From the sequence record NZ_CP014126.2: DNA of 64,000 nucleotides. One strand, 5' to 3'. A model generated the notes under the pieces. The model worked only from the letters and a program-made list of their open reading frames with translations, made no database searches and was not told the DNA's origin. A program made the translations under genes and the position numbers. Shown here in pieces: positions 5,413 through 21,443 of this stretch. Numbering within the stretch: the first letter of the stretch is position 1; the number at the start of each line of letters is the position of its first letter. Source of the DNA: a plasmid.

Positions 5413-5661
5413 GCTGTGGTTTATGTGGAATGCAATTTAAACAAAAAAATAAGTTACCATTCCTCTGAAGTTTATTTTCTGAACAGGAATTATTCAGCCT
5501 TGAACCACTTCGGTATGCTTACTGGCAGGGAGGAAAGTTGACGGGTGGTAAGACATAGCCGGAAAATCGATTTCCCCGCCGGGATTTAATCTGCCATGCT
5601 TATTCTGAAGCCCTCAATCGGGCAATGCGCTTTTATCTTTCACTTTATGCAGGAAGAAATA

Positions 5662-6660: not shown

Positions 6661-6810
6661 CGCGAAACCTCCCTTACTCCAGCGCAGTGACGATCCTTCG
6701 CAAAGTGGGGTGGTTAATCACTTTTATAGATTTATTTTAGCTAAATAACCTGTTTTAAAGATTTACTCTGACATGCCTATAATCTTTCTGTCTACTCAGG
6801 AGATTCCGGC

Positions 6811-7971: not shown

Positions 7972-8567
7972 GTGAAACCAGCACATCGATGCAGGACTCG
8001 TTTTTACGCGAGGAATGCCTCGCGGCAGTCACCGCGCCGCATGTGGCCGCGCTGAATCGCTGGGTCAGCGGCCAGCGTCAGGCCGGTGCAGAACTGCCGT
8101 GGTTTGATCCGGCTGACGGCGGGGTTAGGGCCGGACTGCTCGTCCTGCTGCAGTCGCCGGCGCGCAGCAGCCCGTCACCGCGGTTTGTGTCGCGTGATAA
8201 CCCGGGGCCGGCCCAGCAGAACCTTGGGCGGTTTCTGGCGGAAGCCGGTATTTCGCGTCAGGACAGCGTGCTGTGGAATACGGTGCCCTGGGTCAGTCAC
8301 GGGCTGCAGAAACGGCCGTCAGCGGCGGACATCCGCAGAGGCTGCGCCTTGCTTGAGGACGTGCTGGCGTATCTGCCCGCGCTGCGCGTGGTGGTGCTGG
8401 CCGGTGCCGTAGCGGCTCAGGCCCGCGGGACGGTCAATCATCTGTACCCCGGCGTCCCCGTGTTGACGATGCCGCACCCCAGTCCGCTTTCGCTCTGCAC
8501 GAGTCCGGCGGTGACGGAAAACATTCGCCGGGTACTCTGCGAGGCACGGGCTGCGCTGGCAGGCTGA
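7968..8567 (+). CDS. uracil-DNA-glycosylase-superfamily fold protein with divergent active-site motifs
   Basis: Architecture matches family-4 UDG: motif-B-like MPHPSPLS near the C-terminus and a G-x-FLxxAGI...V(L)WNTVPW block. The canonical GE(A/G)PG motif A is replaced by LQSPA. The start GTG overlaps the stop of the transporter gene. Confidence 0.45.
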   Translation: MSETSTSMQDSFLREECLAAVTAPHVAALNRWVSGQRQAGAELPWFDPADGGVRAGLLVLLQSPARSSPSPRFVSRDNPGPAQQNLGRFLAEAGISRQDSVLWNTVPWVSHGLQKRPSAADIRRGCALLEDVLAYLPALRVVVLAGAVAAQARGTVNHLYPGVPVLTMPHPSPLSLCTSPAVTENIRRVLCEARAALAG

Positions 8568-8586
8568 GGGCGCCAGCAGAATAATA

Positions 8587-8615
8587 CTGACAGGTTTTGC
8601 AACCGGCTCTATACT
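8587..8615 (+). promoter_or_regulatory. sigma70-like promoter (CTGACA-17 nt-TATACT) driving the riboswitch-led operon
   Basis: Hexamers with 17-nt spacing sit ~10 nt upstream of the riboswitch aptamer. Confidence 0.45.
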
Positions 8616-8625
8616 CATATGACAA

Positions 8626-8680
8626 GGTGATGGCGTTCCACCTTTCCCAACCGCTCCGTTCCGGAGCTGATGACGCCTGA
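8626..8680 (+). ncRNA. fluoride riboswitch (crcB RNA motif) aptamer
   Basis: GGUGAUGGCGUUCCACC-uuuCCCAACC-GCUCCguuccGGAGC-UGAUGACGCCU matches the conserved GGnGAUGGnGUUCnnCC...AAC...stem...UGAUGAC(U/G)CCU layout. The loop GGCGU can pseudoknot with ACGCC. It sits 85 nt upstream of ppaC. Confidence 0.8.
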
Positions 8681-8764
8681 TGCGACTCTTGATTTTCAGG
8701 AGGTGCGTCAGGCCGTCCTTACTTTCTTCCCGGCCTGCGTACTTCCCTCTTCGGGGAGAGACCT

Positions 8765-9673
8765 GTGATACACGTTTTTGGCCACATCAATCCTGACAGC
8801 GACGCCATCTGCACGGCCTTCGTCACCGCGCACTGGCTGACCGGGCGCGGCATGGACGCCCGCGCATGGCGTCTTGGCGAAGCTAACCGCGAAACCCATT
8901 TTATCTTTGACACCGCCGGACTCACGCTGCCGCCACGGCTTGATATTCCGCTACAGGATGAACGGGTCTGGCTGGTCGATTTCACCGAGCCGGCGCAGGG
9001 ACCTGACGACCTGCTCCGGAGCAACATCGTGGGGATCACTGACCACCACCGGCTGGGCGGACTGATAACGCAACTGCCGCCGGAGGTACACATACGCCCG
9101 CTTGGCAGCAGCGCCACGCTGCTGTGGCTGCTTATGAACGCTGAAGCGCGACGCACGCTGCCCCCGACGCTTGCCATTCTTCTGCTGGGTGCACTCCTGA
9201 GCGACACCGTGAATCTTCGCTCGCCCACCACGACCGAAGACGATATCCGTTCGGCTACCGAGCTGGGCGTACTGTCCGGCGTAAACCGCAGAGCCTTCGC
9301 CCGTGACCTCCTTACGGCAAAAACTGACGTCAGCGGCCTCAGCGCACAGCTGCTGCTGGACAGGGACCTCAAGGCCTTCGTCATTGCCGGCACTGACGTG
9401 CGCATCGCCCAGATTGAGGTCAGCTCCCCGTCACAGGTTGCCACCGTGATGGACGACCTGCTCGCTGCCCTGGCGTATCTGGCAGACCAGTCGGGTGCTG
9501 GTTTGGCGGTGCTGATGCTGACCGACATCCGGGCCGGGTTTTCAACGCTTTATTTCGCCGGGCGGGAGAGCGTTAACGCGGCCTCCTGCTCCGTACCGGG
9601 TATGCTCAGCCGCAAAAAACAGCTTCTGCCGTGGCTTGAGTCCCGCCTCAACCAGAACGGGAGTTCATTATGA
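8765..9673 (+). CDS. ppaC: DHH-family, family II (Mn-dependent) inorganic pyrophosphatase
   Basis: N-terminus (M)IHVFGHINPDSDAIC is DHH motif I. DHH motif: GITDHHRLG. The C-terminus SRKKQLLPWL matches the PpaC C-terminal signature. GTG start follows a GGGGAGAG RBS. Confidence 0.8.
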   Translation: MIHVFGHINPDSDAICTAFVTAHWLTGRGMDARAWRLGEANRETHFIFDTAGLTLPPRLDIPLQDERVWLVDFTEPAQGPDDLLRSNIVGITDHHRLGGLITQLPPEVHIRPLGSSATLLWLLMNAEARRTLPPTLAILLLGALLSDTVNLRSPTTTEDDIRSATELGVLSGVNRRAFARDLLTAKTDVSGLSAQLLLDRDLKAFVIAGTDVRIAQIEVSSPSQVATVMDDLLAALAYLADQSGAGLAVLMLTDIRAGFSTLYFAGRESVNAASCSVPGMLSRKKQLLPWLESRLNQNGSSL

Positions 9674-10095
9674 CCTGCTACACCCATGCATTGATACTTG
9701 TGAACGATAAAGACGACGGCACCCTCCTGCTGAAGCGGGCGGTCGCGCTGGCGCAGCCGCTCGGCATGAAAATCACCCTGGCCCACATCAGCGACGACTA
9801 CCGGGAAATGAACTACGTGTCCGACAGCCTGATGGACGACGTCGTGTCGGAAGAGGTGCTGAAATCCAAAGCGTTTATGAGCGAGCTGGCGGCCTCCGTG
9901 CCTGAGACGGTAGACATGCGGGAGCTGGTGACCATGCGCCGCTTTGAGGACGTGGAGAAGTGCATCGCTGAGCTGGGCGTGGACCTCGTGCTTGCCGGGC
10001 ACCGAAACCGCTTTATGGGAATGCTGACGTCCCGCTCGGCGGAATACATTAACCACCTCACGGTGGATGTGCTTATCACTCACCTGAATGACTGA
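9670..10095 (+). CDS. universal stress protein (UspA family)
   Basis: 141 aa. HAL(I)LVNDKDDG...LAHISDD...GVDLVLAGHRNRF...VDVLITH resembles the Usp ATP-binding fold pattern. Overlaps the ppaC stop. Confidence 0.7.
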   Translation: MTCYTHALILVNDKDDGTLLLKRAVALAQPLGMKITLAHISDDYREMNYVSDSLMDDVVSEEVLKSKAFMSELAASVPETVDMRELVTMRRFEDVEKCIAELGVDLVLAGHRNRFMGMLTSRSAEYINHLTVDVLITHLND

Positions 10096-10110
10096 ACCGG
10101 GAGAAACTCT

Positions 10111-11400
10111 ATGCGCTTTACACTGGATAACGTGACCGCCCGTGAAATTCTTGACTCTCGCGGCAACCCCACCGTTGAAGTCGAAGCCCGGACCGTGGAC
10201 GGAATGATGGCGCGGGCCTCGGTGCCTTCCGGGGCCAGCACCGGCTCGCGCGAGGCCGCTGAGCGCCGCGACGGCGACGTACACCGTTTTGGCGGTAAAG
10301 GCGTACTGGATGCTGTCAGGACGGTTAATACGGAAATCTGCGAAGCCTTGCGCGGCAGGGACGTGCGCGAGCAGCGTCAGCTGGATAACATCATGCTGGC
10401 GCTGGACGGTACGCAGAGCAAGAGTCGGCTGGGTGCCAATGCCATTCTGGGCGTGTCGCTGGCGGTTGCCCGGCTGGCGGCACAGGCCTCGCACGAGCCG
10501 CTCTGGCGCTACCTGGGGGGCCTGCAGGCGAACCTGCTGCCCGTACCGTGCATGAACATTATCAACGGCGGCGTGCACGCCCGCGGTCAGGGCGCGGACT
10601 TTCAGGAGTTCATGATAGCGCCACACGGGGCACCCACGCTGCGCGAGGCCGTGCGTCAGGGCAGCGAGGTCTACCAGGCGCTGCGCCAGATCCTGCTGGA
10701 CAAGAACCTGTCCGCGGCAGTCGGCGACGAAGGCGGTTTTGCGCCCGCCGTATCGTCGAACCGCGACCCGCTGGCGTTTATCGTGCAGGCCATTGAGAAG
10801 GCGGGGTACAGGCCCGGAGAAGACATCAGCATCTGCATGGACCCTGCCTCAAGTGAGTTTTTCGCAGACGGAAAATATCATCTGCGCACGGAGGGCAGTG
10901 CGCTGAGCGCGGCGGAAATGACGGCGTACTACGGCGAGCTGATGGACCAGTTTCCCGTCATTCTGCTGGAAGACGGCCTGGCAGAAGATGACTGGTCGGG
11001 CTGGAAGCATCTGCACCAGCAGCTTGCGGGCAGGGCCGAGCTGGTTGGTGACGACCTGTTTGTCACCAACGTGAAGTACATCCAGCGCGGCATTGACGAA
11101 AACCTCGCCAGCGCCGCATTGATTAAACTCAATCAGATAGGCTCGCTTAGCGAAACGCTGGACGCCGTGGCGCTCTGCCAGCGGCACGGGTGGGGCGCGT
11201 TCATGTCCCACCGCAGTGGGGAAACGACGGACACATTTCTTGCCGACCTCACGGTAGCCCTGCGCGCGGGACACCTGAAAACCGGTGCGCCGTGCCGCGG
11301 CGAACGCGTGGAAAAGTACAACCAGCTGATGCGCATTGAGCAGGCGCTGGGTGAGGACGCTCACTATGCGGGGCTTCATGCGTTTGTGCGCCGCACGTAA
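10111..11400 (+). CDS. eno: enolase (phosphopyruvate hydratase)
   Basis: 429 aa. N-terminus (V)TAREILDSRGNPTVEVEARTVDG; SHRSGETTDTFLADL catalytic region; IKLNQIGSLSETLDAV signature. Confidence 0.9.
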   Translation: MRFTLDNVTAREILDSRGNPTVEVEARTVDGMMARASVPSGASTGSREAAERRDGDVHRFGGKGVLDAVRTVNTEICEALRGRDVREQRQLDNIMLALDGTQSKSRLGANAILGVSLAVARLAAQASHEPLWRYLGGLQANLLPVPCMNIINGGVHARGQGADFQEFMIAPHGAPTLREAVRQGSEVYQALRQILLDKNLSAAVGDEGGFAPAVSSNRDPLAFIVQAIEKAGYRPGEDISICMDPASSEFFADGKYHLRTEGSALSAAEMTAYYGELMDQFPVILLEDGLAEDDWSGWKHLHQQLAGRAELVGDDLFVTNVKYIQRGIDENLASAALIKLNQIGSLSETLDAVALCQRHGWGAFMSHRSGETTDTFLADLTVALRAGHLKTGAPCRGERVEKYNQLMRIEQALGEDAHYAGLHAFVRRT

Positions 11401-11443
11401 CAGATCCACCGGACGGCCAGCGGCCGGCACAGGAGCACAGTCT

Positions 11444-12145
11444 TTGGCACCTTCAACGCTGATTCTCCTGCGCCATGGCGAAAGCCAGTGGAACCGGGAA
11501 AACCGTTTTACCGGATGGACAGACGTGCCGCTGACGGACCGGGGGCGGCAGGAGGCTGACCGGGCCGGTGACGTGCTGCGGGACGCGGGCCTGCTGCCCG
11601 ATCGGGTCTTCACCTCGGTGATGACGCGCTGTGTTCACACGGTCTGGCGGGTGCTGGACCGTCTTGGCCGCAGCTGGACGCCCGTGGACAAACACTGGCG
11701 GCTGAACGAGCGGCACTACGGTGCGCTGCAGGGGCTGAACAAGGAAGCGGCTGCCCGGATGATGGGTGCAGAGACCGTCCGGCTCTGGCGCAAAAGCTTC
11801 AGCGGCATTCCCCCCGCGGACGCAGGGGCTCCGGCGCAGCTGCGTCGGGACCCGCGCTACAGCCGCGTTGCGCTGGCCGACCTGCCTGCGACGGAAAGCC
11901 TGGAAATGACGCTGCGTCGCGTCATGCCCTACTGGCAGCACGCCGTGATGCCGCAGATACTCTGCGGAAGTACCGTTCTGGTCGTGGCGCACGGCAACAC
12001 GCTGCGCGCCCTGGCCGCCTTCCTGGACGGCATGCCACACGACAGCTTGGCACAGTTGCATATCCCGACCGGCGTGCCGGCCGTATACCAGATGGATGCG
12101 GCCGCACAGGTCGTTTCCCGTTATGTTCTGAATATAAAAAAATAA
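11444..12145 (+). CDS. gpmA: 2,3-bisphosphoglycerate-dependent phosphoglycerate mutase
   Basis: LILLRHGESQWNRENRFTGWTDVPLT is the histidine-phosphatase RHGE motif. The probable start is TTG at 11444, 8 nt after AGGAG. The track ORF (from 11336) overlaps the eno 3' end and is probably over-extended. Confidence 0.75.
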   Translation: MAPSTLILLRHGESQWNRENRFTGWTDVPLTDRGRQEADRAGDVLRDAGLLPDRVFTSVMTRCVHTVWRVLDRLGRSWTPVDKHWRLNERHYGALQGLNKEAAARMMGAETVRLWRKSFSGIPPADAGAPAQLRRDPRYSRVALADLPATESLEMTLRRVMPYWQHAVMPQILCGSTVLVVAHGNTLRALAAFLDGMPHDSLAQLHIPTGVPAVYQMDAAAQVVSRYVLNIKK

Positions 12146-12150
12146 AAGGA

Positions 12151-12531
12151 GTGAACGTGAATCAGCTTTTTGCTGTCATCACCGGCGGTGCTTTAGGGTG
12201 TGTTATCCGCTGGCAGCTGGGCGCGCGCCTGAACGCGCTTTTTCCGGACCTGCCGCCGGGGACGCTGCTGGTCAACCTGCTGGGAGGGTTTATCATCGGA
12301 GCGGCGCTGGCGTATTTTCTGCGCCATCCCGGCCTCGATCCGGCCTGGCGGCTGCTCATTACCACCGGGCTGTGTGGCGGAATGACGACCTTCTCCACGT
12401 TCTCGGCTGAGGTTTTTGCCCTGCTGCAGTCCGGCAGCTATGCCTGGGCAGCCGCCTCGGTGCTGATACACGTGCTGGGTTCGCTGGCCATGACGGCGGC
12501 CGGATTTTATATCATGACGCTGTGTGGTTAA
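12151..12531 (+). CDS. crcB: CrcB/Fluc fluoride ion channel
   Basis: 126 aa with four transmembrane segments and the GGxTTFSTF signature (CGGMTTFSTFSAE). GTG start follows AGGAG. Confidence 0.85.
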   Translation: MNVNQLFAVITGGALGCVIRWQLGARLNALFPDLPPGTLLVNLLGGFIIGAALAYFLRHPGLDPAWRLLITTGLCGGMTTFSTFSAEVFALLQSGSYAWAAASVLIHVLGSLAMTAAGFYIMTLCG

Positions 12532-12546
12532 CCCGAGGGAGACCTT

Positions 12547-12566
12547 AGTGCAGTGACCGCTGCACT
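12547..12566 (+). terminator. stem-loop (agtgcag-N6-ctgcact) immediately 3' of crcB
   Basis: 7-bp inverted repeat 16 nt after the crcB stop. Confidence 0.4.
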
Positions 12567-12664
12567 GAGGTATATTGTTCAGAAGCGCTCTCTGCAGGCC
12601 AGACCTGACAGGGTTTACGCTTGTAATGCTTCCCGTACACCTGAGGCGCTGCTGTGAAAGAATT

Positions 12665-13078
12665 TCAGGCCTGCCTGTTCTGGTAAAGGTCCCAGCGATT
12701 GCCGTAGATGTCCTCAAATACGACAACCATTCCGTATTCTTCCTCCCGTGGCTCCTGAAAGAAGTGGACGCCTTTTGCCTTCATAGCATTGTAGTCGCGC
12801 CAGAAGTCGTCGGTCTGCAGGAACAGAAAAACCCGTCCGCCGCACTGATTGCCGATAAAGCCTTCCTGCCGGTCGTTCGACGCGCGGGCAAGAAGAATAG
12901 CACAGTCGCTGTCAGGGGCCGGCGTCACCACGACCCAGCGCTTACCCGGCTGCGGCGTGTCTTCAATGAGGGTAAAGCCCAGCTTATCGGTGTAGTACTC
13001 AATTGCACGATCGTAGTCATCGACCACGACCGCCACGTATCCCATACATCGCTTCTGTTTTCTCATCTGCTGCTCCAT
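12665..13078 (-). CDS. VOC-family (glyoxalase / bleomycin-resistance fold) protein
   Basis: MGYVAVVVDDYDRAIEYYTDKLGFTLIED...ILLARA...GRVFLFLQTDDFWRDYNAMKAKGVHF is typical of a paired betaalphabetabetabeta module. Confidence 0.65.
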   Translation of the reverse strand: MEQQMRKQKRCMGYVAVVVDDYDRAIEYYTDKLGFTLIEDTPQPGKRWVVVTPAPDSDCAILLARASNDRQEGFIGNQCGGRVFLFLQTDDFWRDYNAMKAKGVHFFQEPREEEYGMVVVFEDIYGNRWDLYQNRQA

Positions 13079-13191
13079 CAGTTACGGCATTACGCCCGTT
13101 ATAATCAGCTTTATATCAAATACGGCGTTCAGTTATCTGTACTGATTCTGCACTGATACCCTCAGACCTGACATTGTAAGCATCTGAGCAG

Positions 13192-15363
13192 TCAGGATTG
13201 TGGGCCCAATCTTGTAAGAGCCTGCTCAACCTTTTCAGCATCCTGCTCCAGTATGGCTCTCTCATCGGGAGTGAGCGGGACCTCTTCGAGGTAACGCCGG
13301 ATGGATGCTTTACTCTCCAGTATCAGCCCGCGCGCGCTATCCTTCAGCAGGTTAAAATCGCAGCCGATGCAGGCCATCCGGTGCGGGCAACTGCTCCAGA
13401 AGGGGTTCGTACAGTATGAGTCGCCCAGATCGTAGTAGGTCGCGGGCCCGGACAGGCTGGCGGCTTCAGGATCGTGGTCAACCAGCACGCTTATCATATG
13501 AGCGACCCTGTCGGCTTTGACGAACGAGGCAGCCAGCTGAGTCGGGCGGATGCGAAGATAGTGCATTGTAGACTGGGGCGTTGAATGGCCCGTCCACTGC
13601 ATCAGTTCGTACAGCGACATGCCCTGCGGTACGCTCGCCAGCGCGGTCACGGCTGAGGCCCGCCCCCGGTGGCTGGTTATCATTCCGCCACTGTCTTCAC
13701 AAGGCACGCCCGCTCTTGCGCATAGCATCGGTATCACGGTGCGGTTGAGGATAGCGCTGCCGGCAGGCTTACCCCGGTACTGAAACAGAAGCCGGACTTT
13801 CTCACCGGTTCGCTCGTCAGCGAGCAAAGCCTGTTCTGCCGGACGCTCATCCAGCCATATGTCGACGTATTTTTTCACCACGGCCGCCACCGGTTTAACA
13901 AAGGCTTTTGAGGTTTTTCCGGCAGGGATATGCAGGTAACACAGGGTTCCTGCCGGGATGATACTTCCGTCGTCCTTCACGATATCGTCCGCCTGCGGCG
14001 CGATGCACCCGGTTGTCAGGCGGAGCAGTTCGTTCTTTCTTACCCCCGCATGGGTCCAGATGACGGCCATTGCCTGCAGCATGGCCAGTGGATAATGTAT
14101 TTCAGTGAGCAGATCTTCCTGACGCAGATTGAGGCTGGCCCAGATGAGCTTCAGCCAGACCGGATCGTCAATAACACGGGGATTGACGCCGCGACGGAAC
14201 AGCGGCGTATCCGGTGTGGAAAGATGGCGGGCAGGGCTGAAGTGCAGGCGCCCCCAGCCCCAGTTTTCGTAATCAATCATAAAACGGCGCAGAGAATAGA
14301 TAAAATGCGCCCTGGAATGCGGCATCATGGGCTCGCCGGAGCGCACCGATTTGCCGGTGCCCCTTTCCGTGCCCAGCTGAAGCTCATCCACGTTCATCCG
14401 GCCTACCGCCGCAATGAAGCTGGCGCAGGTTTCCATTGTCCAGTCTGCCGGTTCCCGAACCTCCGGATGCTCCTTTTTCAGCCAGAGGCCGCAGCGCAGA
14501 ATAAAGCTGTACTGGCTTTCACGGGTGCGCGGCCTGAGCACCGACGTTTCCCGCCAGCGCCGGCACCAGTGCACCCAGGCCGGATCGACGCCTTCGACCG
14601 GCTTTTCGTACCATTTTTTATAGTTTCGCATCCTCACCGGGGCGCTGATAATCCCCAGTGCGGCAAGTGCATGTGAAACGCGGCCGACGTAACGGGATAT
14701 TCCCTTGTCTGTCCCGCTCTGGGCGCGCCAGAGGAGTTCAGGCGTAAACGTTTCAAGCCGGGGATCCCTGTTCATGATCATCAGTGTTGCCAGTATACCC
14801 GAGACATGATTTTTCTGGCTGGTCGGGGCATAACCCAGCGACGTCAGCGTATCAGTCAGCCGGTCCAGCTCCTGGTGATAAAAAGCCTGGCCGAAGATGG
14901 CAGAAGCATAGAGCGCGGGTTTACGTATATCAGGCAGGCTGAGCGGGTCATGCAAATCAGCCAGATGCCAGGCAAAAGCGGCCATTAACGGACGGCCCTC
15001 CCTGACTTCCCGGCACAGCGTCAGCCAGCGTTCCTGCGGCCAGCACCAGCAGGGCATGCCGTCTGCATGCATTTCGCGCAGCAATCCGGCTATCACCAGC
15101 CCCGTGATTTTGCTGCCGCATCCGCTTCCGGCGGCAATGTCCATCAGCGGCCTGATGAGGTCCGGCACCGGCTTCGTTCGCAGCATACGGGACCGGCTGT
15201 GAGCGCTGCTCAGTGCCGTCCGTTCAGCGAGGGTCAGTGACGCCTCAAGCCGGTATTCAGTCATGTCGAACGGATGCCGGCTGTTTTCAATCGGTGTGTG
15301 TGGGCTCATGTTATTTCTCTGTTCTGAAAATGAGGTTCGCCATCCTGATATCTGCCGTTTCAA
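13192..15363 (-). CDS. large tyrosine recombinase (723 aa) with a long N-terminal extension
   Basis: The C-terminus carries ...ITSHRGRASAVTALA... (HxxR) and ...GHSTPQSTMHYLRI (H...Y nucleophile). It overlaps the upstream small recombinase gene by 53 nt, which suggests an operon. Confidence 0.7.
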   Translation of the reverse strand: MKRQISGWRTSFSEQRNNMSPHTPIENSRHPFDMTEYRLEASLTLAERTALSSAHSRSRMLRTKPVPDLIRPLMDIAAGSGCGSKITGLVIAGLLREMHADGMPCWCWPQERWLTLCREVREGRPLMAAFAWHLADLHDPLSLPDIRKPALYASAIFGQAFYHQELDRLTDTLTSLGYAPTSQKNHVSGILATLMIMNRDPRLETFTPELLWRAQSGTDKGISRYVGRVSHALAALGIISAPVRMRNYKKWYEKPVEGVDPAWVHWCRRWRETSVLRPRTRESQYSFILRCGLWLKKEHPEVREPADWTMETCASFIAAVGRMNVDELQLGTERGTGKSVRSGEPMMPHSRAHFIYSLRRFMIDYENWGWGRLHFSPARHLSTPDTPLFRRGVNPRVIDDPVWLKLIWASLNLRQEDLLTEIHYPLAMLQAMAVIWTHAGVRKNELLRLTTGCIAPQADDIVKDDGSIIPAGTLCYLHIPAGKTSKAFVKPVAAVVKKYVDIWLDERPAEQALLADERTGEKVRLLFQYRGKPAGSAILNRTVIPMLCARAGVPCEDSGGMITSHRGRASAVTALASVPQGMSLYELMQWTGHSTPQSTMHYLRIRPTQLAASFVKADRVAHMISVLVDHDPEAASLSGPATYYDLGDSYCTNPFWSSCPHRMACIGCDFNLLKDSARGLILESKASIRRYLEEVPLTPDERAILEQDAEKVEQALTRLGPQS

Positions 15364-16312
15364 TCGCGCCAGCCATCCGGGCAGCCAGGTCCCTGCCAGA
15401 AAGATGAATATAAATCTGTGTTGTGGTCAGGTCGCGGTGTCCTGCATAGGTGGCAAGTTCGTGCAACTTCCAGCCCGCGCGGGCAAGGTGTGTGAGTCGC
15501 AGGTGCCGGAAGGTATGGGTTGAGATGTCCGGCATCCCAGACTCAAGCGCCCATTTCCGTACCGTTTTGCTCCAGGTCCAGAATGAAAGCGGCCCGCCCT
15601 GATTACGATCGGACTCAGAACGGAACAGGGCACCTCTTACGATTCCGGTCCGCTTCATCTGCATAAGGTGCGCGGCCAGCACTGGCACTACTGCCGGGCT
15701 GTAACAGACAATTCGTTCACGCCGGCTCTTGGTGGTTTCTGCCCGGATGCGGATGAGCCGGTGAGCAAAGTCGAAGTCGTCAATACTTAGCGAGGTAATT
15801 TCAGACCGACGCAGCGCGCCGTAATAGGTTAATGCCAGCATCAGGCGGTCACGCAGTGGGGAAGCGGCGGCATGATAAAGAAAACACTGCCACTGCGCAT
15901 CGTCAGGAATGCGCGGCAGCTTTACAACGCGGGGAACCAGTCCCCGGCCGGAACTCAGCATGCCGGGCGTGCCGGATCGGGGCAGCGGATTGACCGTGCA
16001 AAGATCCAGGTACATGAGAAAGTCATACCAGAGGCGGATCGCCGACAGGCGAAGCTGGAGCGTGGCGCTGGCCGCGGAAAAAGGCATCCCGGGTAACTGA
16101 GGACTAATATAGGCAGCCAGGTCTTCAAACCGCGCCTTTTCAGGTTTAATTCCGTTCTGGCTGCAGAACGCAAAGTAATGACGGAGGGCATTGCGGTAGG
16201 CTGTTAGCGTGGCCTGCGCCCGCCCCAGATCGGATAACAGTTGCAGCCAGCGCTCTGCCAGCAACAGAACGTGTTCACTCGGTGGAATCAGCATTGCATT
16301 CTCCTCTGACAA
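15311..16312 (-). CDS. tyrosine recombinase, XerD-like (333 aa)
   Basis: C-terminus HTFRHLRLTHLARAG...LATYAGHRDLTTTQIYIHL gives the complete R..HxxR..H/Y catalytic set. It is the first gene inside the right end of the element. Confidence 0.8.
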   Translation of the reverse strand: MSEENAMLIPPSEHVLLLAERWLQLLSDLGRAQATLTAYRNALRHYFAFCSQNGIKPEKARFEDLAAYISPQLPGMPFSAASATLQLRLSAIRLWYDFLMYLDLCTVNPLPRSGTPGMLSSGRGLVPRVVKLPRIPDDAQWQCFLYHAAASPLRDRLMLALTYYGALRRSEITSLSIDDFDFAHRLIRIRAETTKSRRERIVCYSPAVVPVLAAHLMQMKRTGIVRGALFRSESDRNQGGPLSFWTWSKTVRKWALESGMPDISTHTFRHLRLTHLARAGWKLHELATYAGHRDLTTTQIYIHLSGRDLAARMAGAIETADIRMANLIFRTEK

Positions 16313-16364
16313 CAGCTTTGCTGTTCAAAGTTTACTCAATCAATGTTGCATTCCACGTAACTTA

Positions 16365-16607
16365 CTAGAGCGCGTAGTTTGAACTAAAGACGTGCACACG
16401 CTCGGCAAAATCCTGATTTTTTATCTGGAACCACGGCGCGCCCATTTTAATGCCCAGCTTTTTTGCGCCGGCGCTGCGCGCGATGATGCAGCCGTCATTG
16501 TTCGACAGGACGACAACGGGCTTACCGCGCAGATCAGGGCGAAACAGTGCTTCGCAGCTGGCATAAAACGAATTGACGTCGGCCAGGCCAAACATTGGCA
16601 TGATCAC
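16365..16607 (-). pseudogene. umuC: umuC 5' fragment (first ~78 codons), fused to element-derived codons
   Basis: MFGLADVNSFYASCEALFRPDLRGKPVVVLSNNDGCIIARSAGAKKLGIKMGAPWF...HVFSSNY aligns with the N-terminus of the intact UmuC (MFALADANNFYASCETVFRPDLRGKPIVVVSNNDGCVIARSAEAKRLGVKMAAPLF...HVFSSNYEL), then ends in AL-stop. It overlaps the umuD stop. Confidence 0.85.
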
Positions 16608-17053
16608 CTCCGGCGGGCTCGGGTACTGTTGAAGAACCAGGTAACCACACCGAGCAGCTGCAGCTCCTCCGGATAAATTACCGGATAGGCCGGGTTCATC
16701 GGCAGCAGTGCGAGCCTGGGCTGCAGCTGCAGACGCTTGACCGTAAATTCGCCGTTAACCTCAGCGATCACTATGTCGCCGTGAGCCGCCTCTTCTGCCC
16801 GGTCAACCACCATGACATCACCATCGCAGAGACCGAGATCCCGCATACTGTTTCCACTGGCGCGCACGAAAAAAGTTGAGGCGCGCCGGCGAATGCAGAG
16901 CTCATTCAGATCGAGTTCTTTCTCAACGTAATCCTGAGCGGGGGAAGGGAAGCCGGCGGCGCAAGGATCAGCATACAGCGGCACCCGGACACGGGGCGTA
17001 AATATGGGTGGCCAGAGCAACGTCAGCCCGGGAGTATAGTTACCCGGATTCAT
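16604..17053 (-). CDS. umuD: UmuD, SOS mutagenesis protein (canonical, self-cleaving type)
   Basis: Cleavage-site region PCAAGFPSPAQDYVE; catalytic Ser in ASGNSM and Lys in EFTVKRLQL, matching UmuD/LexA S24 peptidases. Confidence 0.85.
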   Translation of the reverse strand: MNPGNYTPGLTLLWPPIFTPRVRVPLYADPCAAGFPSPAQDYVEKELDLNELCIRRRASTFFVRASGNSMRDLGLCDGDVMVVDRAEEAAHGDIVIAEVNGEFTVKRLQLQPRLALLPMNPAYPVIYPEELQLLGVVTWFFNSTRARRR

Positions 17054-17131
17054 GACCTGATGCCCAGGCCATACTGCAGCAGTACTGCGGAAACTTTGTT
17101 GAAATTGCGCATAAAATTCCTCCTCTTATTT

Positions 17132-17151
17132 TACTGTTTATATGTACAGTA
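17132..17151. promoter_or_regulatory. LexA (SOS) box TACTGTTTATATGTACAGTA
   Basis: Perfect CTGT-N8-ACAG palindrome 80 nt upstream of minus-strand umuD. Confidence 0.85.
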
Positions 17152-17350
17152 TTATTGAGGTGAATTAATCTGGCAAGAGGGAGCGAAGCGGCCATGTATA
17201 AAAGCGAAGCCATCTGTCTGACAGAATAGGAAATTTTATGAAGGTCAGCCCGGCACTAAGTGGCCCGGCAGCTTTAACAGTAATGCAGAATGTATGTTTG
17301 GTGTGTAAGCAGTTCATGCCGGCATCGGTGAAATGACGCTTCCTCGCCAC

Positions 17351-17508: not shown

Positions 17509-18189
17509 TTAATCCTTATCTGCCGGTGAGGCCTCGATAAGCTCACTACCCTGGTGATGAATATTGCCAACTTTTTTGCTGACAGGATGCCAGGTAAATG
17601 CTTTTTCCGGAACGGCTGCATCGCGGGCAATTTCTTCTGCACGCGCTGGAGACGTTTCGTCACTGAGCCATTCACGAACAGCATCAGGCGTAATCACCAG
17701 CGGCCGCCTGTCATGTATATCGACCATGCCCTGATTGCTGGCTGACGTGACAATCACGAAGCCCTCTTTGCCGTGATCCTGCCCGTACGGCTGCCTGCCG
17801 ATGGCGGCGAAGAAAAGTGGCTCCTTTTTTTTGTGAAAGATGAAGAATGGCTGCTTCTCACCACCTTCTTTCTGCCATTCGAACCAGCCGTCAGCAGGCA
17901 CGATAGCGCGGCCATGATTCCAGAGAGGCTTAAACATGCGGCCGCTCGCAGCCGTCTCACCGCGCGCGTTGATAAGTGGCTGCTTATCCCACCATTCCGG
18001 TCCGTAGCCCCAATATACCGGATCGAGGCGCAACGAATCTTCCTGTTCGTGTAGCAGTAACACTTTAGTGCCTGGTGCTACGTTAAAGCGCCCGAGAGGT
18101 TCCGGATCGAATGTGATTTCGTCCGGTGTCAGGCCGAGTGAGTCAAAATAATCGTCGCGGCTGCTGTACTGCGCAAATCTTCCACACAT
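17509..18189 (-). CDS. SOS-response-associated peptidase (SRAP / YedK-like, DUF159)
   Basis: N-terminal MCGRF with catalytic Cys2; 226 aa; conserved WNHGRAIVPADGWFEW. It lies between two umuDC operons. Confidence 0.8.
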   Translation of the reverse strand: MCGRFAQYSSRDDYFDSLGLTPDEITFDPEPLGRFNVAPGTKVLLLHEQEDSLRLDPVYWGYGPEWWDKQPLINARGETAASGRMFKPLWNHGRAIVPADGWFEWQKEGGEKQPFFIFHKKKEPLFFAAIGRQPYGQDHGKEGFVIVTSASNQGMVDIHDRRPLVITPDAVREWLSDETSPARAEEIARDAAVPEKAFTWHPVSKKVGNIHHQGSELIEASPADKD

Positions 18190-18314: not shown

Positions 18315-18707
18315 ATGGAGATATTCATGGCCTTTCAGAGCCCGGCCCAGAACTACACCGAAACGCGCCTGAGTCTGGGCGATCTGGTGCATCTTTCCCC
18401 TTACTCTACCTATCTGATGCGCAGCGAAAGCGACTGTCCAGATGCTGGTATTATTAAAGGGTCCGTGCTGGCAATCGATCGCGCGCTGACACCGGCACAC
18501 GGTCAGTTAATCGTTGCCGAGCTCGAGGGAGAACTGACGCTGAGGCGGCTGCTGCTTAATCCGGTTCCTGCCCTGCAGGCGCTGGACGCGGACGAAACTG
18601 TTACGCTGCTTGATGTAAGCCATGTGCTGCCAGTGTGGGGTGTGGTTGCCTATGCCCTCACCGATGTAGCCGGAGTGGGATTTAACGGACTGGCAGGAGA
18701 TGAGTAA
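18315..18707 (+). CDS. UmuD'-like protein: begins at the post-cleavage position and has a degenerate Ser/Lys dyad
   Basis: It aligns with UmuD from GFPSPAADYV onward (AFQSPAQNYTE...). The ~24-residue arm and Cys-Gly cleavage site are absent; an in-frame TAA lies 2 codons upstream. Catalytic GDSM becomes SDCP (Ser->Cys) and VKKL becomes LRRL (Lys->Arg). Confidence 0.7.
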   Translation: MEIFMAFQSPAQNYTETRLSLGDLVHLSPYSTYLMRSESDCPDAGIIKGSVLAIDRALTPAHGQLIVAELEGELTLRRLLLNPVPALQALDADETVTLLDVSHVLPVWGVVAYALTDVAGVGFNGLAGDE

Positions 18708-19969
18708 TGTTTGCGCTGGCCGATGCCAACAATTTTTACGCCTCATGCGAAACCGTATTCAGGCCCGATCTGCGTGGTAAACCGATTGTCGTCGTGTCGA
18801 ACAACGACGGATGCGTTATCGCACGATCGGCCGAGGCAAAGCGTTTAGGGGTTAAAATGGCCGCCCCGCTGTTCCAGAATGAGCGTTATTTCAGGCAGAA
18901 CGGTGTGCACGTGTTCAGCTCAAACTACGAGCTATACGGCGACATATCTGCACGCATGATGGCCATACTGGGCGAGATGGCCGCGGGACAGGAAGTCTAT
19001 TCCATCGATGAGTCATTTCTGGACGTTACCGGGATTGATAACCTTATCCCGCTTGAGGCATTCGGGCAGCAGATGCGCGAGCGTATCCGGAAGGAAACCG
19101 GGCTGATAATCGGCGTGGGGTTCGGGCCGACCAAAACCCTGGCCAAACTTGCTAACCATGCATCTAAAAAGTGGACGCAGACGAATGGCGTCGTAGATCT
19201 GTCAGACAGAAGCCGACAACGAAAACTCCTTCATCTGACTGATGTCAGTGATATCTGGGGCATTGGCCGGCGGATCAGCCTGCGCATGAACCAGCTGGGA
19301 ATCACCACGGCACTGCAGCTCGCTGACAGCAATGTCAGCATGATACGTAAGAACTTCGACGTTATCGTCGAGCGCACCGCGCGTGAACTCAATGGTGAGT
19401 CTTGCCTGGCACTTGAAGACGCACCTCCGCCTAAGCAGCAGATAGTGAACTCACGTTCTTTTGGCCAGCGCGTTACACAGTTAGAAGATATGCAGCAGGC
19501 GCTCGTGCTTTATGCCACGCGTGCTGCGGAAAAGCTCAGGCAGCAGAATTCACGCTGCCGCCATATAAGCGTCTCGATCGCCACCGGTCGCCACGGTGAT
19601 GAACCGCAGTATTCAAATACGGCCTCACGCATATGCGATTATCCGACGAACGACACGCGGGACATTATTGAATCAGCACTTCGAGGCCTCAGCACTATCT
19701 GGCAGGAGGGTTACCGGTATGCGAAAGCCGGCGTAATGCTGGGTGATTTTTACCAGTCAGGCGTGGCACAGTTCGACATGTTCAGTGAGCAGCAGCCGCG
19801 TGCAAATGCAGATGCATTAATGGCAGCGCTGGACGGCATCAATCGCGCAGGCAAAGGAAAGGTCTGGTTCGCGGGTCAGGGAAATCGCGACAGTTCATGG
19901 CAGATGAAGCGTGAAATGCTGTCGCCGCGCTATACCACGCGCATAAAAGATATTCCGCGAATTAAATAA
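18707..19969 (+). CDS. umuC: UmuC, Y-family DNA polymerase V catalytic subunit (intact, 420 aa)
   Basis: MFALADANNFYASCETVFRPDLRGKPIVVVSNNDGCVIARS...SIDESFLDVTG...full length. Start overlaps the upstream stop (TAATG). Confidence 0.9.
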   Translation: MFALADANNFYASCETVFRPDLRGKPIVVVSNNDGCVIARSAEAKRLGVKMAAPLFQNERYFRQNGVHVFSSNYELYGDISARMMAILGEMAAGQEVYSIDESFLDVTGIDNLIPLEAFGQQMRERIRKETGLIIGVGFGPTKTLAKLANHASKKWTQTNGVVDLSDRSRQRKLLHLTDVSDIWGIGRRISLRMNQLGITTALQLADSNVSMIRKNFDVIVERTARELNGESCLALEDAPPPKQQIVNSRSFGQRVTQLEDMQQALVLYATRAAEKLRQQNSRCRHISVSIATGRHGDEPQYSNTASRICDYPTNDTRDIIESALRGLSTIWQEGYRYAKAGVMLGDFYQSGVAQFDMFSEQQPRANADALMAALDGINRAGKGKVWFAGQGNRDSSWQMKREMLSPRYTTRIKDIPRIK

Positions 19970-20043
19970 CTTTAAGTTATAAAGCTAGGTGAATCTGTTC
20001 ATGCAATTCACTTCACCCTAGCGCTATTTTATGAATAATGCTG

Positions 20044-20838
20044 TTAAGGTTGATTGTTTTTCATTTTTGTAGTTGTCATTAATATTTCTTCTATTTTATC
20101 TATGGAAGTAAAGTCTACAAGGCTCACTTGATTGATATGCGCATCAAGCTCTTTCGAATTAAAGAGGCCTCGAAGATGTTTTAACCAATCGTCAGCAAGA
20201 GATCTTTCTTGTTGGCTGAATAGATTAAATAGTTCTGTCGCTTTAATTGATCTCTCGTCGATGTCTCCATCATTATCATAAAACACACTATAATCGTTGA
20301 TGAATCTATTTGTTCTAAGTGCCAGCGCTAATATTTTAAGATTTTGAGCACTAATTGATGCTTTAAGATCATAGCTTTTACTTTGCAGATCAGTTATCTC
20401 AGTTGCAAGGGCCTTTTTTTCGGCTTCCAAGGTTTCAATTTTAGCATCAATTTCTTTTTTCTTGTTTTCTCTAATTTTTTTTGCGATCTCCTCTCTATCT
20501 ATAGCCTTTTCGTCAGCATAATGAATTTTCGCTTTGAAGTATGCAGTAAAATTGGAAATCAAAGCATTAAGTCCAGGCATAGTGATTGAAAGAGCGATGC
20601 CAGTCAAGACAGGAAGAACAAGGTAGTTATAATATAAGTTATCTTGACCATATATTGCAGTTATTCTTTTTTCAACAGGTGCTTTTGACATGAATAAAAA
20701 AATAATATTTGACCAGTTATAAGCGAGCCAGGATGTTGTTATATAAGCCGCACAAGGACCAGCAAACCGCCCAGCTAATCCTTTAAAGAACTCCGCGCTT
20801 CCTTCTTTTACGCCGTCAGTTTCTTCACTCATTATCAA
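20044..20838 (-). CDS. hypothetical membrane-anchored coiled-coil protein, AT-rich orphan
   Basis: 264 aa. Two to three N-terminal transmembrane segments, a central Lys/Glu-rich heptad region (EEIAKKIRENKKKEIDAKIETLEAEKKALATEITDLQSK) and an acidic C-terminus. The ~35% GC region is flanked by ~60% GC DNA. Confidence 0.4.
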   Translation of the reverse strand: MIMSEETDGVKEGSAEFFKGLAGRFAGPCAAYITTSWLAYNWSNIIFLFMSKAPVEKRITAIYGQDNLYYNYLVLPVLTGIALSITMPGLNALISNFTAYFKAKIHYADEKAIDREEIAKKIRENKKKEIDAKIETLEAEKKALATEITDLQSKSYDLKASISAQNLKILALALRTNRFINDYSVFYDNDGDIDERSIKATELFNLFSQQERSLADDWLKHLRGLFNSKELDAHINQVSLVDFTSIDKIEEILMTTTKMKNNQP

Positions 20839-21443
20839 TGCCTATTCTAAAATTCAGTAGGAAAACTCTTCCCGGTTTATAAAATCTTATCGCTTAATAA
20901 ATTAACTTTGTCCCCGCAACTAGGAACATCGTGATACCCACACTTCACGTAGTTGAATCAGTGGTCAGTGTCAGTAGGTTCGCATTACAAGGTATAGAAC
21001 CAACTACCATAACCGCTAAACAGCTGAATCAGACAGTACCTAAAATAATAACAACGGATGTCATTTTTTAACAGCTTCTTGCCATCTCATGAGTAACAGT
21101 GCTGCTGCTCTTTCGAGCATAGATTTACAAACTAGATATGCACATGTGTTCTGGGCAAGAAGACATAAGGAAGTCGCTTCGCTCTGCTTCTTTTGCCGCT
21201 CCCCGTCCTGCGGCCGGAAACCGGCAGAGGTAAAGTGCCGTGCCCTTACTGTAGCCGGGCGGCTTCCCAAACAAGCGAAGCTGTCGCCGGCCTTCTCACC
21301 CGTTCCCCGCCGTGCGCGGGACATTCAGTCCGCTCCGGCGGCGCGTGCGGCTTCGCGTCCGCCCTTGTTTGCTCAGCTGTTCGCCCGTCTGCGTGTTGGT
21401 CACGGCACCATAGGGGTGCCCCCTGACATTAAGGAGCATAACT

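Follow-up and report, generated by a model that had tools for sequence, protein, structure and literature searches.

Transposons of the Tn554 family (Tn554, Tn558, Tn559, Tn6674 and Tn7130) occur in Bacillota, encode TnpA, TnpB and TnpC, carry a small and then a large recombinase gene at one end, with catalytic residues in both, and insert without target duplication in a site- and orientation-specific manner, leaving a 6-7-bp copy of the donor flank at the junction. Tn554-like transposons of Listeria target the Y-family polymerase gene uvrX (PMC8508797). [quoted passage not shown] GInts and RIT elements are likewise multi-recombinase, site-specific, non-conjugative islands with three recombinase-like genes, to which GInts, common in Pantoea, add ginD. 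Finally, an island of ~11 kb and ~60% G+C that contains eno, ppaC, uspA, gpmA and crcB, and two recombinases beside a 5' umuC fragment, has been mentioned twice (PMC4458695, PMC5971314): as the 'umuDC island' of ICEPan, pEb102, pEI70 and P. vagans C9-1 (De Maayer 2015, PMC4458695), where it was assigned to XerC/XerD orthologues and the term integron was used, and as fragment R4' of pPV989-94 (2018, PMC5971314), where it was described as 'mediated by phage integrase'.

We analysed a 64,000-nucleotide stretch of plasmid record NZ_CP014126.2 (hereafter, the window), in which this same element, a 10,946-bp insertion at positions 5421..16366, divides the plasmid's umuC gene in two. Its limits are set by P. 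agglomerans plasmid pCFSAN047153_4, which is 100% identical over exactly that span and has different flanks; family-wide junction alignments give the same limits, and joining the two flanks regains the umuC open reading frame. In our view, 5421..16366 is probably a site-specific transposon of a widespread family, still mobile or mobile until recently, with a core consisting of an operon for two tyrosine recombinases, one small and Xer-like, the other large and TnpB-like, and with movement that would proceed by single-strand exchange and perhaps be SOS-induced. The family appears to be without a name so far, and its termini, exact crossover, two-gene composition, wider distribution, relationship to Tn554 and mechanism are new with respect to the two island papers. 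The element and its surroundings are arranged as follows:

5421..16366, minus strand: whole mobile element, 10,946 bp, with the recombinase genes and element sense on this strand
16367..16607, minus strand: umuC 5' fragment, 80 codons plus the T of a Tyr codon (Pfam IMS positions 2-69)
4375..5420, minus strand: umuC 3' fragment, beginning with the AC of the Tyr codon (Pfam IMS, IMS_HHH, IMS_C and DUF4113; in-frame reconstruction)
16604..17053, minus strand: umuD of the disrupted operon (Peptidase_S24)
17134..17176, minus strand: LexA-box-like CTGTTTATATGTACAG overlapping a sigma-70-like promoter upstream of umuD (promoter-like site 17176..17148)
17509..18189, minus strand: SRAP gene, 1.1 kb beyond the element end

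Within the umuC motif SSNYxL|Y, the element is inserted after the T of the Tyr codon and before its A, without duplication or loss of target sequence; the corresponding target DNA is AAyTAyGCnCTnT|AyGGnG (protein SSNYxL|YGD). An earlier note, made from the window alone, had hypothesised that the element is site-specific and prefers a site within umuC, and this is strongly supported: when recombinase-side junctions are compared across genomes of different species, 47 of the 55 distinct ones fall at this umuC codon, all oriented alike. Another four are in the motif GDDxQxI|Y of a UvrD-like helicase, the target of one deep clade, and at three of the remaining four the same DNA motif is present and encodes N-Y-A-L. 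Relatives whose large recombinases are 39-95% identical share the umuC codon in Gamma- and Alphaproteobacteria and in Acidobacteria. When flanks are joined, the reading frame is restored in all umuC and all UvrD-like cases, and the open reading frame is regained in 30 of 31 distinct flank pairs (umuC, UvrD-like and pKP91 sites). Natural empty sites exist as well: pPagL15_3 (L096) has a contiguous umuC site, and the intact umuC of pHNAH8I-1 matches the site occupied by the sister element of pKP91. The 100%-identical 10,946-bp copy in pCFSAN047153_4 (L001) occupies, in the opposite orientation, another umuC allele, whose protein-level identity is only ~85-87% (tblastn), which points to recent mobility, and the rare reverse insertions are displaced by exactly 6 bp (three of three: L001, L117 and L184). 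The survey turned up neither homologous elements at unrelated targets without common end motifs nor tRNA targeting of the phage-integrase kind. The SRAP gene, located by the earlier note where we also find it, is an unrelated neighbour, with a homologue within 10 kb in only four other loci.

The termini of the element are defined by these features:

16361..16366, minus strand: terminal hexamer AGTAAG of the recombinase end, constant across the family
16346..16360, no strand assigned: recombinase-side inverted-repeat arm, TTACGTGGAATGCAA as read on the minus strand (family consensus TTAnGTGGAAT)
5421..5435, no strand assigned: cargo-side inverted-repeat arm, TTATGTGGAATGCAA as read on the plus strand (ending ...ATTCCACATAA 3' in element sense)
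5450..5457, plus strand: subterminal TAAGTTAC, which repeats part of the sequence of the recombinase end

In element sense, the ends thus read AGTAAG-TTAnGTGGAAT ... ATTCCACATAA, i.e., inverted arms of 11-15 bp plus a constant hexamer at the recombinase end. Among 35 unique cargo ends, ATTCCACATAA hardly varies, and the hexamer is AGTAAG throughout the family apart from the clade variants ATTAAG, TATAAG, AATAAG and AGTTAG. The recombinase end invariably carries the element hexamer, and the cargo end the target hexamer, which equals the local target sequence in every case. The umuC arms around the crossover bear no obvious likeness to the element arms. The inverted motifs that the earlier note had seen at both ends are present: GTGGAATGCAA occurs exactly twice in the 64 kb, at 5425-5435(+) and 16346-16356(-), and TAAGTTAC at 5450-5457(+), 16357-16364(-) and one unrelated site (~0.9 matches being expected in the window). 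Their supposedly rearranged order and spacing proved to be something else: what makes the ends asymmetric is that the recombinase end is extended by a constant 6 nt, AGTAAG. A related motif pair further in can indeed be read in the sequence (TTCTGAACAG at 5478-5487 and CTGTTCAAA at 16322-16330), but is not conserved beyond the Pantoea clade. A motif similar to the subterminal TAAGTTAC also appears in the cargo ends of another clade.

The recombinase genes lie just inside the hexamer-bearing end:

13192..15309, minus strand: large tyrosine recombinase, 705 aa (marginal Pfam match, invariant residues, AF2 model, hhalign)
15311..16294, minus strand: small Xer-like tyrosine recombinase, 327 aa (Pfam Phage_integrase, 2e-29, and a SAM-like N domain)

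Both were first listed as open reading frames from TTG, at 13192..15363(-) with 723 aa and at 15311..16312(-) with 333 aa; these are present as listed, and both match Pfam Phage_integrase. The 53-nt gene overlap that they imply is not real, having arisen because the first possible start codon (TTG) was taken: the RefSeq annotation of L001 has ATG starts, with which the N-termini of homologues concur and which leave a gap of 1 nt. Because the genes are separated by a single nucleotide here and overlap by 4 nt in the Pseudomonas clade, the tight, operon-like spacing that had suggested co-transcription stands. In the small recombinase, R162/R163, K189, H260, R263, H286 and Y295 are invariant across 60 unique homologues, as are R424, K465, H547, R550, H575, Y584 and a Cys motif across 37 sequences of the large recombinase; to judge from these alignments, the catalytic residues are retained by both proteins. 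The large protein combines a helical domain at its N-terminus with core-binding and catalytic domains and, at its C-terminus, a C-x7-CPH-x3-C-x2-C motif. Its catalytic part has fold matches to XerA/IntI (AF2 model), and its N-terminal 240 residues had no match in fold and profile comparisons.

These two genes are the only ones conserved in the family, the cargo being unrelated among relatives. The smallest elements measure 3.4 to 4.1 kb, and members of 3.4-3.6 kb hold the two recombinase genes alone. The element in the window carries the following cargo:

5596..8567, plus strand: beta-propeller protein, TDT-family transporter and a protein annotated as uracil-DNA glycosylase (NCBIfam; RefSeq annotation of the identical copy)
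8617..8686, plus strand: fluoride riboswitch at the head of the cargo operon (Rfam RF01734, 51.3 bits, E 9.8e-12)
8765..12531, plus strand: fluoride-response cluster (NCBIfam; RefSeq annotation of the identical copy)
12665..13078, minus strand: VOC/glyoxalase-family gene (NCBIfam; RefSeq annotation of the identical copy)

The cluster at 8765..12531 comprises genes for a Mn-dependent pyrophosphatase-like DHH protein, a universal stress protein, enolase, phosphoglycerate mutase and CrcB, and as annotated this cargo is a fluoride-resistance cluster under riboswitch control. The VOC/glyoxalase-family gene is not part of the core and is missing from relatives with other cargo. Cargo found among relatives includes fluoride resistance, nickel/cobalt resistance, a restriction-modification system, chlorite dismutase and a YopJ-type effector. 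A tblastn search with the large recombinase produced matches in ~600 plasmid records, including those of clinical Enterobacter, Citrobacter, Klebsiella, Serratia and Pseudomonas aeruginosa.

The likeness to Tn554 that the earlier note had seen in this small-plus-large pair holds up as remote homology. The profile of the large recombinase matches that of the Tn554 TnpB family (hhalign 92.6%, E 4.6e-7, 346 columns including the C-terminal Cys motif), with negative-control comparisons being much weaker, and the small recombinase matches Tn554-family TnpA (BLASTP E 2e-24). The large protein and TnpB have in common core-binding and catalytic domains and a YC-x7/8-CPH-x2-AC-x2-C motif. These matches, the gene order at one end and the duplication-free, site- and orientation-specific insertion into a DNA-repair gene, as in the uvrX transposons of Listeria, would all be expected of an ordinary Tn554-family member that transposes by means of TnpA, TnpB and TnpC and carries along a 6-7-bp donor core. 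We nevertheless think this unlikely: identity to TnpB is ~20% and confined to the C-terminal two thirds (core-binding and catalytic domains and Cys motif), the N-terminal third being unrelated; the terminal sequences differ; the junction hexamer is constant whatever the target, unlike the donor-flank copy of Tn554; and the hosts belong to Proteobacteria and Acidobacteria, not to Bacillota. Moreover, tblastn searches of the window and 91 loci detected no homologues of TnpC (DUF6262; none at E<=1), for which the 3.4-kb members leave no space, nor any of Srap or Tfp. The lack of the latter two bears on the proposition that the element is a multi-recombinase island of the SE or GInt type, some of which (the tmexCD-toprJ units) are in umuC too. 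Its two recombinases of unequal size, its short inverted repeats, its few preferred targets, its lack of mobilisation genes and its uniform junctions, which would be compatible with the use of one specific strand as in SEs, all recall those systems. However, the tmexCD1 unit of pHNAH8I-1, from which our SE reference genes were taken, has four core genes (429, 576, 679 and 140 aa) that are unlike the pair here (hhalign 0.1% for IntB and 0.6% for Tfp; BLASTP E 0.2 for IntA), whereas the smallest elements of this family are complete with two genes, and the 6-bp footprint of SEs changes with each move, in contrast to the constant hexamer here. Because the reported SE footprints TATCGA/CATCGA are unlike the crossover here, SEs likely use another position in umuC, perhaps the SIDE motif. 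GInts, which require ginABCD and leave imperfect direct repeats (PMC5385486), are set apart by gene count and repeats, with neither a ginA-ginB-ginC-ginD operon nor flanking repeats present at this locus. An origin of the SE or GInt type is thus highly improbable.

Nor does the element behave like a conventional phage- or ICE-type island, in which one integrase would act on identical attP/attB cores and the second recombinase would be accessory or unrelated. The earlier descriptions in terms of a phage integrase (PMC5971314) or XerC/XerD orthologues (PMC4458695) and the XerA/IntI-like fold would suit such an island, but direct repeats are absent, with at most 1 nt common to the two junctions; the target is an internal umuC codon, whose gene is inactivated, and neither a tRNA gene nor a gene 3' end; there is no conserved excisionase-like gene; and both recombinases are co-conserved across 33% to 95% identity with catalytic residues intact, all of which makes this very unlikely. 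The term integron does not fit either: NCBIfam integron-integrase models score 59 bits against a cut-off of 265, and the cargo genes form an ordinary operon preceded by a riboswitch rather than attC-bounded cassettes. Finally, the element might be an immobile relic, i.e., an old umuC insertion passed on by vertical descent or by homologous recombination of the flanking umuDC DNA. Many copies are alike in orientation and position, a circular form has not been seen to date, and IS elements or frameshifts have damaged some copies, as such a relic would predict. Yet the occurrence of the identical element, reversed, in a diverged umuC allele, the DNA motif common to non-umuC sites, the different target gene of one clade, the empty sites in close relatives and the differing cargo of homologous recombinase pairs leave this scarcely credible.

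For the site-specific transposon that we favour, the fixed insertions suggest how movement might occur. With ends of the kind described, a circular form would carry two inverted 11-15-bp arms flanking the 6-bp spacer AGTAAG, with the predicted circle junction ...ATTCCACATAA|AGTAAGTTA... The target would be cut with a 6-bp stagger, like a classical tyrosine-recombinase core, and in every fixed product one and the same strand of the element would have been exchanged, at the 5' edge of the spacer. A single strand pair would be exchanged and the Holliday junction resolved by replication, as is thought to happen with integron cassettes, CTX phage and SE elements, so that there would be a single crossover point and the element would regain its own spacer at each move. 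Integron cassettes and CTX phage follow similar logic with folded single-stranded substrates and IntI or host XerCD, whereas two element-encoded recombinases would act here. The uniform junction type is compatible with such strand bias, but the uniform product could in part reflect selection or repair bias instead of single-strand exchange. In the dominant orientation, AGTAAG and the preceding T of umuC form the stop codons TAG TAA, and the umuDC promoter with its LexA box is then upstream of the recombinase genes, into which it might send SOS-controlled read-through; CTGTTTATATGTACAG is the sole CTGT-N8-ACAG in the window. Recombinase expression, and hence movement, may be SOS-induced, as gene orientation and this one LexA-box match suggest. 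A putative promoter at the junction, TTGAnn-N16/17-TAAGTT, is a poor match: no copy agrees at more than 8 of 12 positions, and the one in the window agrees at 7 of 12.

Cumulatively, these results turn an island known from passing mentions into a family of mobile elements with two genes, ends of ~20 bp and one crossover dinucleotide, which carries adaptive genes, including in clinical hosts, and which forms an evolutionary bridge between the Gram-positive Tn554 and the multi-recombinase islands of Gram-negative bacteria. Being small, base-precise and duplication-free, with a definable DNA motif, these elements offer a tractable model for asymmetric tyrosine-recombinase transposition and might serve as a site-specific insertion tool. 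They perhaps also explain in part why umuC is an insertion hotspot, in that several unrelated recombinase systems target it. Somewhat tentatively, we suggest that the element in the window is the first to be recognised of a widespread, unnamed and minimal class of tyrosine-recombinase transposons: TnpC-less, distant cousins of Tn554 in Proteobacteria and Acidobacteria that target DNA for invariant motifs in the catalytic regions of DNA-repair enzymes (UmuC SSNYxL|Y and UvrD-like GDDxQxI|Y), exchange a single defined strand at a core with a 6-bp stagger and capture an SOS promoter. If true, at least four recombinase lineages (these elements, the SEs, a 33%-identical sister family and the Listeria Tn554-like elements) would have converged on Y-family polymerase genes, and DNA damage would set off the spread of the element by way of the promoter of the very gene it destroyed. 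For the host, each insertion costs an error-prone polymerase, and plasmid-borne SOS mutagenesis may change as a result.

A high-G+C block of about 11 kb interrupts umuC in the window, with two recombinase genes at its right end. Both reading frames proposed in the earlier note exist and encode tyrosine recombinases, but the 53-nt overlap claimed between them is not real: both genes start at ATG, judging by how RefSeq annotates an identical copy and by the N-termini of 37 homologues, which leaves 1 nt between them (in the Pseudomonas clade they overlap by 4 nt).

Features of the element (window 5421..16366, 10,946 bp) and of the umuDC locus that it splits
4375..5420, minus strand: umuC 3' fragment, the remaining 348 codons
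8617..8686, plus strand: fluoride riboswitch (RF01734, 51 bits), heading the cargo operon
8765..12531: cargo operon, encoding a pyrophosphatase-like DHH protein, Usp, enolase, phosphoglycerate mutase and CrcB
13192..15309, minus strand: large recombinase, 705 aa from its ATG start
15311..16294, minus strand: small recombinase, 327 aa from its ATG start
16367..16607, minus strand: umuC 5' fragment, 80 codons
16604..17053, minus strand: umuD, preceding the 5' umuC fragment

With this riboswitch-headed cargo operon, the element is a mobile fluoride-tolerance cassette. Many plasmids of Klebsiella and Citrobacter have segments homologous to its eno, DHH and usp genes (~74% identity). At a distance of 2 kb from the disrupted umuD-umuC operon is another that is intact (18315..19969, plus strand); its UmuC is 57% identical and offers the same SSNYELY/GD site (AACTATGAACTTTATGGC-type; here and below a slash marks the junction), unoccupied. 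Between the two operons sits an SRAP gene (17509..18189), which we rejected as part of the transposition system, a homologue being found within 10 kb in only four other loci. Just past the intact umuC, G+C falls sharply to 36% (20000..21000), and this stretch holds a 264-aa ORF (20044..20838, minus strand) with coiled-coil-like, low-complexity sequence.

An exact counterpart of window 5421..16366, 100% identical and with the same limits, was found by megablast in Pantoea agglomerans plasmid pCFSAN047153_4, placed in another umuC allele (fragments at 85-87% protein identity by tblastn) and in the opposite orientation relative to umuD. This copy fixes the limits of the element and is evidence of its mobility. 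In pAR24_C, a recombinase pair ~90% identical occupies the same umuC position but is accompanied by cargo of another kind (LysR, SDR, amidohydrolase), unrelated to that of the window. Joining the window flanks yields an uninterrupted UmuC reading ...FSSNYALYHSMSQRVM..., and the empty site occurs naturally and contiguously in pPagL15_3 (AACTACGCGCTTT/ACCACAGTATG; 93.6% identical): The insertion in umuC is without duplication and without loss.

Full-length relatives of the large recombinase, 48-92% identical among the matches listed, come from Pantoea, Erwinia, Salmonella, Serratia, Providencia, Pseudomonas, Methylomonas and Falsirhodobacter, and tblastn matched 601 plasmid records. A scan of one genome per species gave 80 loci, in which recombinases and umuC fragments were placed by tblastn and the junctions then read. 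The recombinase-side junction is nearly invariant (...AAyTAyGCnCTnT/AGTAAGTTAnGTGGAAT...), and the cargo-side junction reads ...ATTCCACATAA/AyGGnGAyATG.... The preferred site that the earlier note had supposed to lie inside umuC was borne out, since 47 of 55 distinct recombinase-side junctions fall at the same umuC codon with the recombinase genes co-directional with umuC. Four more, from Acetobacteraceae and Terracidiphilus (39-44% identity), lie in a UvrD-like helicase gene at GDDxQ(S/A)I/Y, and three of the remaining four in other genes that chance to encode N-Y-A-L with the same DNA motif.

Flank joining for 31 distinct complete elements reopened the frame in all umuC and UvrD-like cases, with the crossover between T and A of a Tyr codon, and also in a sister case on pKP91; no open frame resulted for L007 (a prophage portal gene) or L062 (another site), with the frame assumed. 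The shortest elements, with just the two genes, measure 3.4 kb and the longest 12.5 kb. Relatives carry as cargo chlorite dismutase and a cupin (element in umuC of P. aeruginosa), a YopJ-family acetyltransferase (element in the P. coronafaciens prophage portal gene), a restriction-modification system or nickel/cobalt resistance. Given the two-gene members and the differing cargo, the two recombinases, which keep all catalytic residues, are therefore the only core genes.

Several loci add to this picture. The helicase-targeting deep clade (L078, L081, L085-L089 and L091; Acetobacter, Komagataeibacter, Terracidiphilus) has the same ends and uses the T/A of the Tyr codon in GDDxQ(S/A)IYxWRG, most copies measuring 5,580 bp and one 3.6 kb. 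The P. coronafaciens member (L007/L008, 4900..9559; 4.66 kb), with the YopJ/HopZ-family gene as sole cargo, occupies a site, GCGGCGCATAT/AG, with only a loose likeness to the umuC motif. Many plasmids from Klebsiella, E. coli and Salmonella carry a sister family with a 33%-identical large recombinase and the ends TATATGTTATTTGGAAT ... ATTCCACATAA; as seen in pKP91 (L011, 7834..16137), it inserts precisely, in reverse orientation, at another umuC position (~codon 50, ...AEAKRLG...), for which pHNAH8I-1 provides the exact empty site (L094, 33059). Complete umuC 3' fragments (aa 78-428) form tandem arrays in two loci (L002 at 8972 and 10059; L014 at 19801, 20888 and 21989), with another cargo-end sequence (...ATTCCACATAA) ~30 bp past each stop codon. 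Such an arrangement suggests that the terminal cargo of some elements is umuDC, the very locus they target, and such arrays could accrete via nested insertions followed by deletions; a uvrX copy is likewise carried by Listeria Tn554-like transposons (PMC8508797). Finally, in an Acidobacteriaceae MAG (L055, 5583..8772) and a Sphingomonas MAG (L061) the first recombinase pair faces another, divergent pair head to head, and GATTCCACATAACTTAG, which looks like an inverted element end, lies ~100 bp upstream of the umuC junction; two family members may have inserted there, one within or beside the other.

Both ends of the element share an inverted arm, TTAnGTGGAAT, extending to 15 bp in the window copy. 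The inverted GTGGAATGCAA noticed earlier indeed occurs solely at the two ends, and TAAGTTAC lies where it had been described; the subterminal TTTGAACAG and TTCTGAACAG are present as well, with conservation confined to the Pantoea clade. Outside the arm, the recombinase end has six extra bases, AGTAAG (CTTACT on the plus strand). [quoted passage not shown] The six bases past the cargo arm are always local target sequence. With arms at both ends and the hexamer at one, circularisation would place AGTAAG between the two arms, which would be a classical tyrosine-recombinase core.

Reverse insertions bear on which strand is used. The metagenome pattern scan for them was too degenerate (120 hits, mostly chance), and filtering for SSNYxL context left two informative reverse and two forward recombinase-end junctions. 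All three fully readable reverse insertions (the pCFSAN047153_4 copy and metagenomic L117 and L184) are displaced by exactly 6 bp, the junction reading ...CTnT AyGGnG/TTATGTGGAAT..., and a fourth, L045, is compatible with this displacement. The two target strands are thus used at positions 6 bp apart, and in both orientations the product appears to be set by one and the same strand of the element, which is cut where AGTAAG begins at its 5' edge. A conventional double exchange between non-identical spacers would create a heteroduplex and so, after replication, two product types in equal numbers. Because only a single type appears among ~60 independent insertions, we infer from these fixed events that one strand pair is exchanged and replication resolves the product, or that an equivalent strand-biased route is taken. 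Exchange of one strand pair would also explain why the element's spacer never changes.

The resemblance to Tn554 TnpA and TnpB raised in the earlier note held up in sequence and profile comparisons, for which reference TnpA, TnpB and TnpC were taken from Listeria pLIS48; TnpB of its Tn7130 shares 71% identity with a Staphylococcus aureus protein (3,025 member sequences) that at 630 aa has the size of Tn554 TnpB. A profile of 20 TnpB-type proteins matched that of 37 large recombinases at 92.6% probability (E 4.6e-7, 346 columns), and the two share a C-terminal motif (YCtNPFWSSCPHRMACiGC against YCxLPVvAGxCPHANACLtC). The controls stayed far below this: with SE IntB, the large-recombinase profile gave 0.1% and the TnpB profile 1.2%, and the element's own small recombinase reached 15%. 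TnpA and the small recombinase can be aligned over their full length (E 2e-24); no TnpC homologue was found. In an AlphaFold model of the large recombinase (pLDDT 72.5), a confident, all-helical N-terminal domain has no PDB counterpart by Foldseek, the C-terminal two thirds match only Xer/IntI-type proteins (the core-binding and catalytic part being most like XerA and integron integrase), the Cys-rich segment is poorly modelled and the C-terminus forms a helical hairpin; a PDB sequence search with the large-recombinase profile gave no match. By these comparisons the element is distantly related to Tn554 and appears to work like it, although it lacks two defining features of that family, tnpC and the donor-derived hexamer.

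Among other multi-recombinase systems, GInts depend on four genes, and their insertions are marked by imperfect direct repeats (PMC5385486). Membership of the family was considered for the 'int-int-hp-hp' unit with tmexCD1 that is reported in umuC on pHNAH8I-1 (PMC8547460), and rejected: It is a four-gene SE without similarity to the recombinase pair of the window. Homologues of the SE proteins Tfp and Srap were absent from all the loci.

tmexCD1-toprJ1 unit
L095 (pHNAH8I-1) 11569..17062: genes of 429, 576, 679 and 140 aa, corresponding to SE intA, tfp, intB and srap

Codons of the SIDE motif of the polymerase would agree with TATCGA/CATCGA, the footprints published for SEs, in which case umuC would be hit at at least three different positions by unrelated recombinase systems.

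Insertion in the forward orientation turns the Tyr codon into TAG, followed by TAA, and the small recombinase gene begins ~70 nt past these stops, an interval in which a consensus scan found no promoter-like site. The only such site in 16200-17300 (17176..17148) lies upstream of umuD and overlaps the sole CTGT-N8-ACAG LexA-type box of the window (17134..17149), making SOS-driven read-through into the recombinase operon plausible, as De Maayer et al. also suggested (PMC4458695). More speculatively, the circle junction could form a candidate promoter, TTGAnn-N16/17-TAAGTT, from a conserved TTGA of the cargo end (21 nt from that end in 14 of 35 unique ends) and TAAGTT of the other, albeit a weak one (7-8 of 12 positions). 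In the Pantoea clade only, a 16-nt direct repeat (AATCAGCATTGCATTC and AATCAATGTTGCATTC, 16286..16301 and 16338..16353) has one copy that forms the inner part of the terminal arm and another over the small recombinase start codon; the latter may therefore bind an autoregulator.

Two papers have described the element before. In ICEPan, pEb102, pEI70 and P. vagans C9-1 it is a 'non-conserved island integrated into the umuDC locus', where XerC/XerD orthologues adjoin the 5' umuC fragment (PMC4458695), and in pPV989-94 it is fragment R4' (PMC5971314); neither defines termini, crossover, family or relatives. A full-text literature search, with most subscription journals outside its coverage, returned no family-level description. 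The original observation is thus confirmed and its interpretation supported. What is new, and backed by consistent comparative evidence, is how the element is defined: a Tn554 relative that has two genes and lacks TnpC, keeps its spacer constant, targets conserved DNA-repair motifs with base precision and shows a 6-bp-staggered insertion pattern that appears to be strand-specific.
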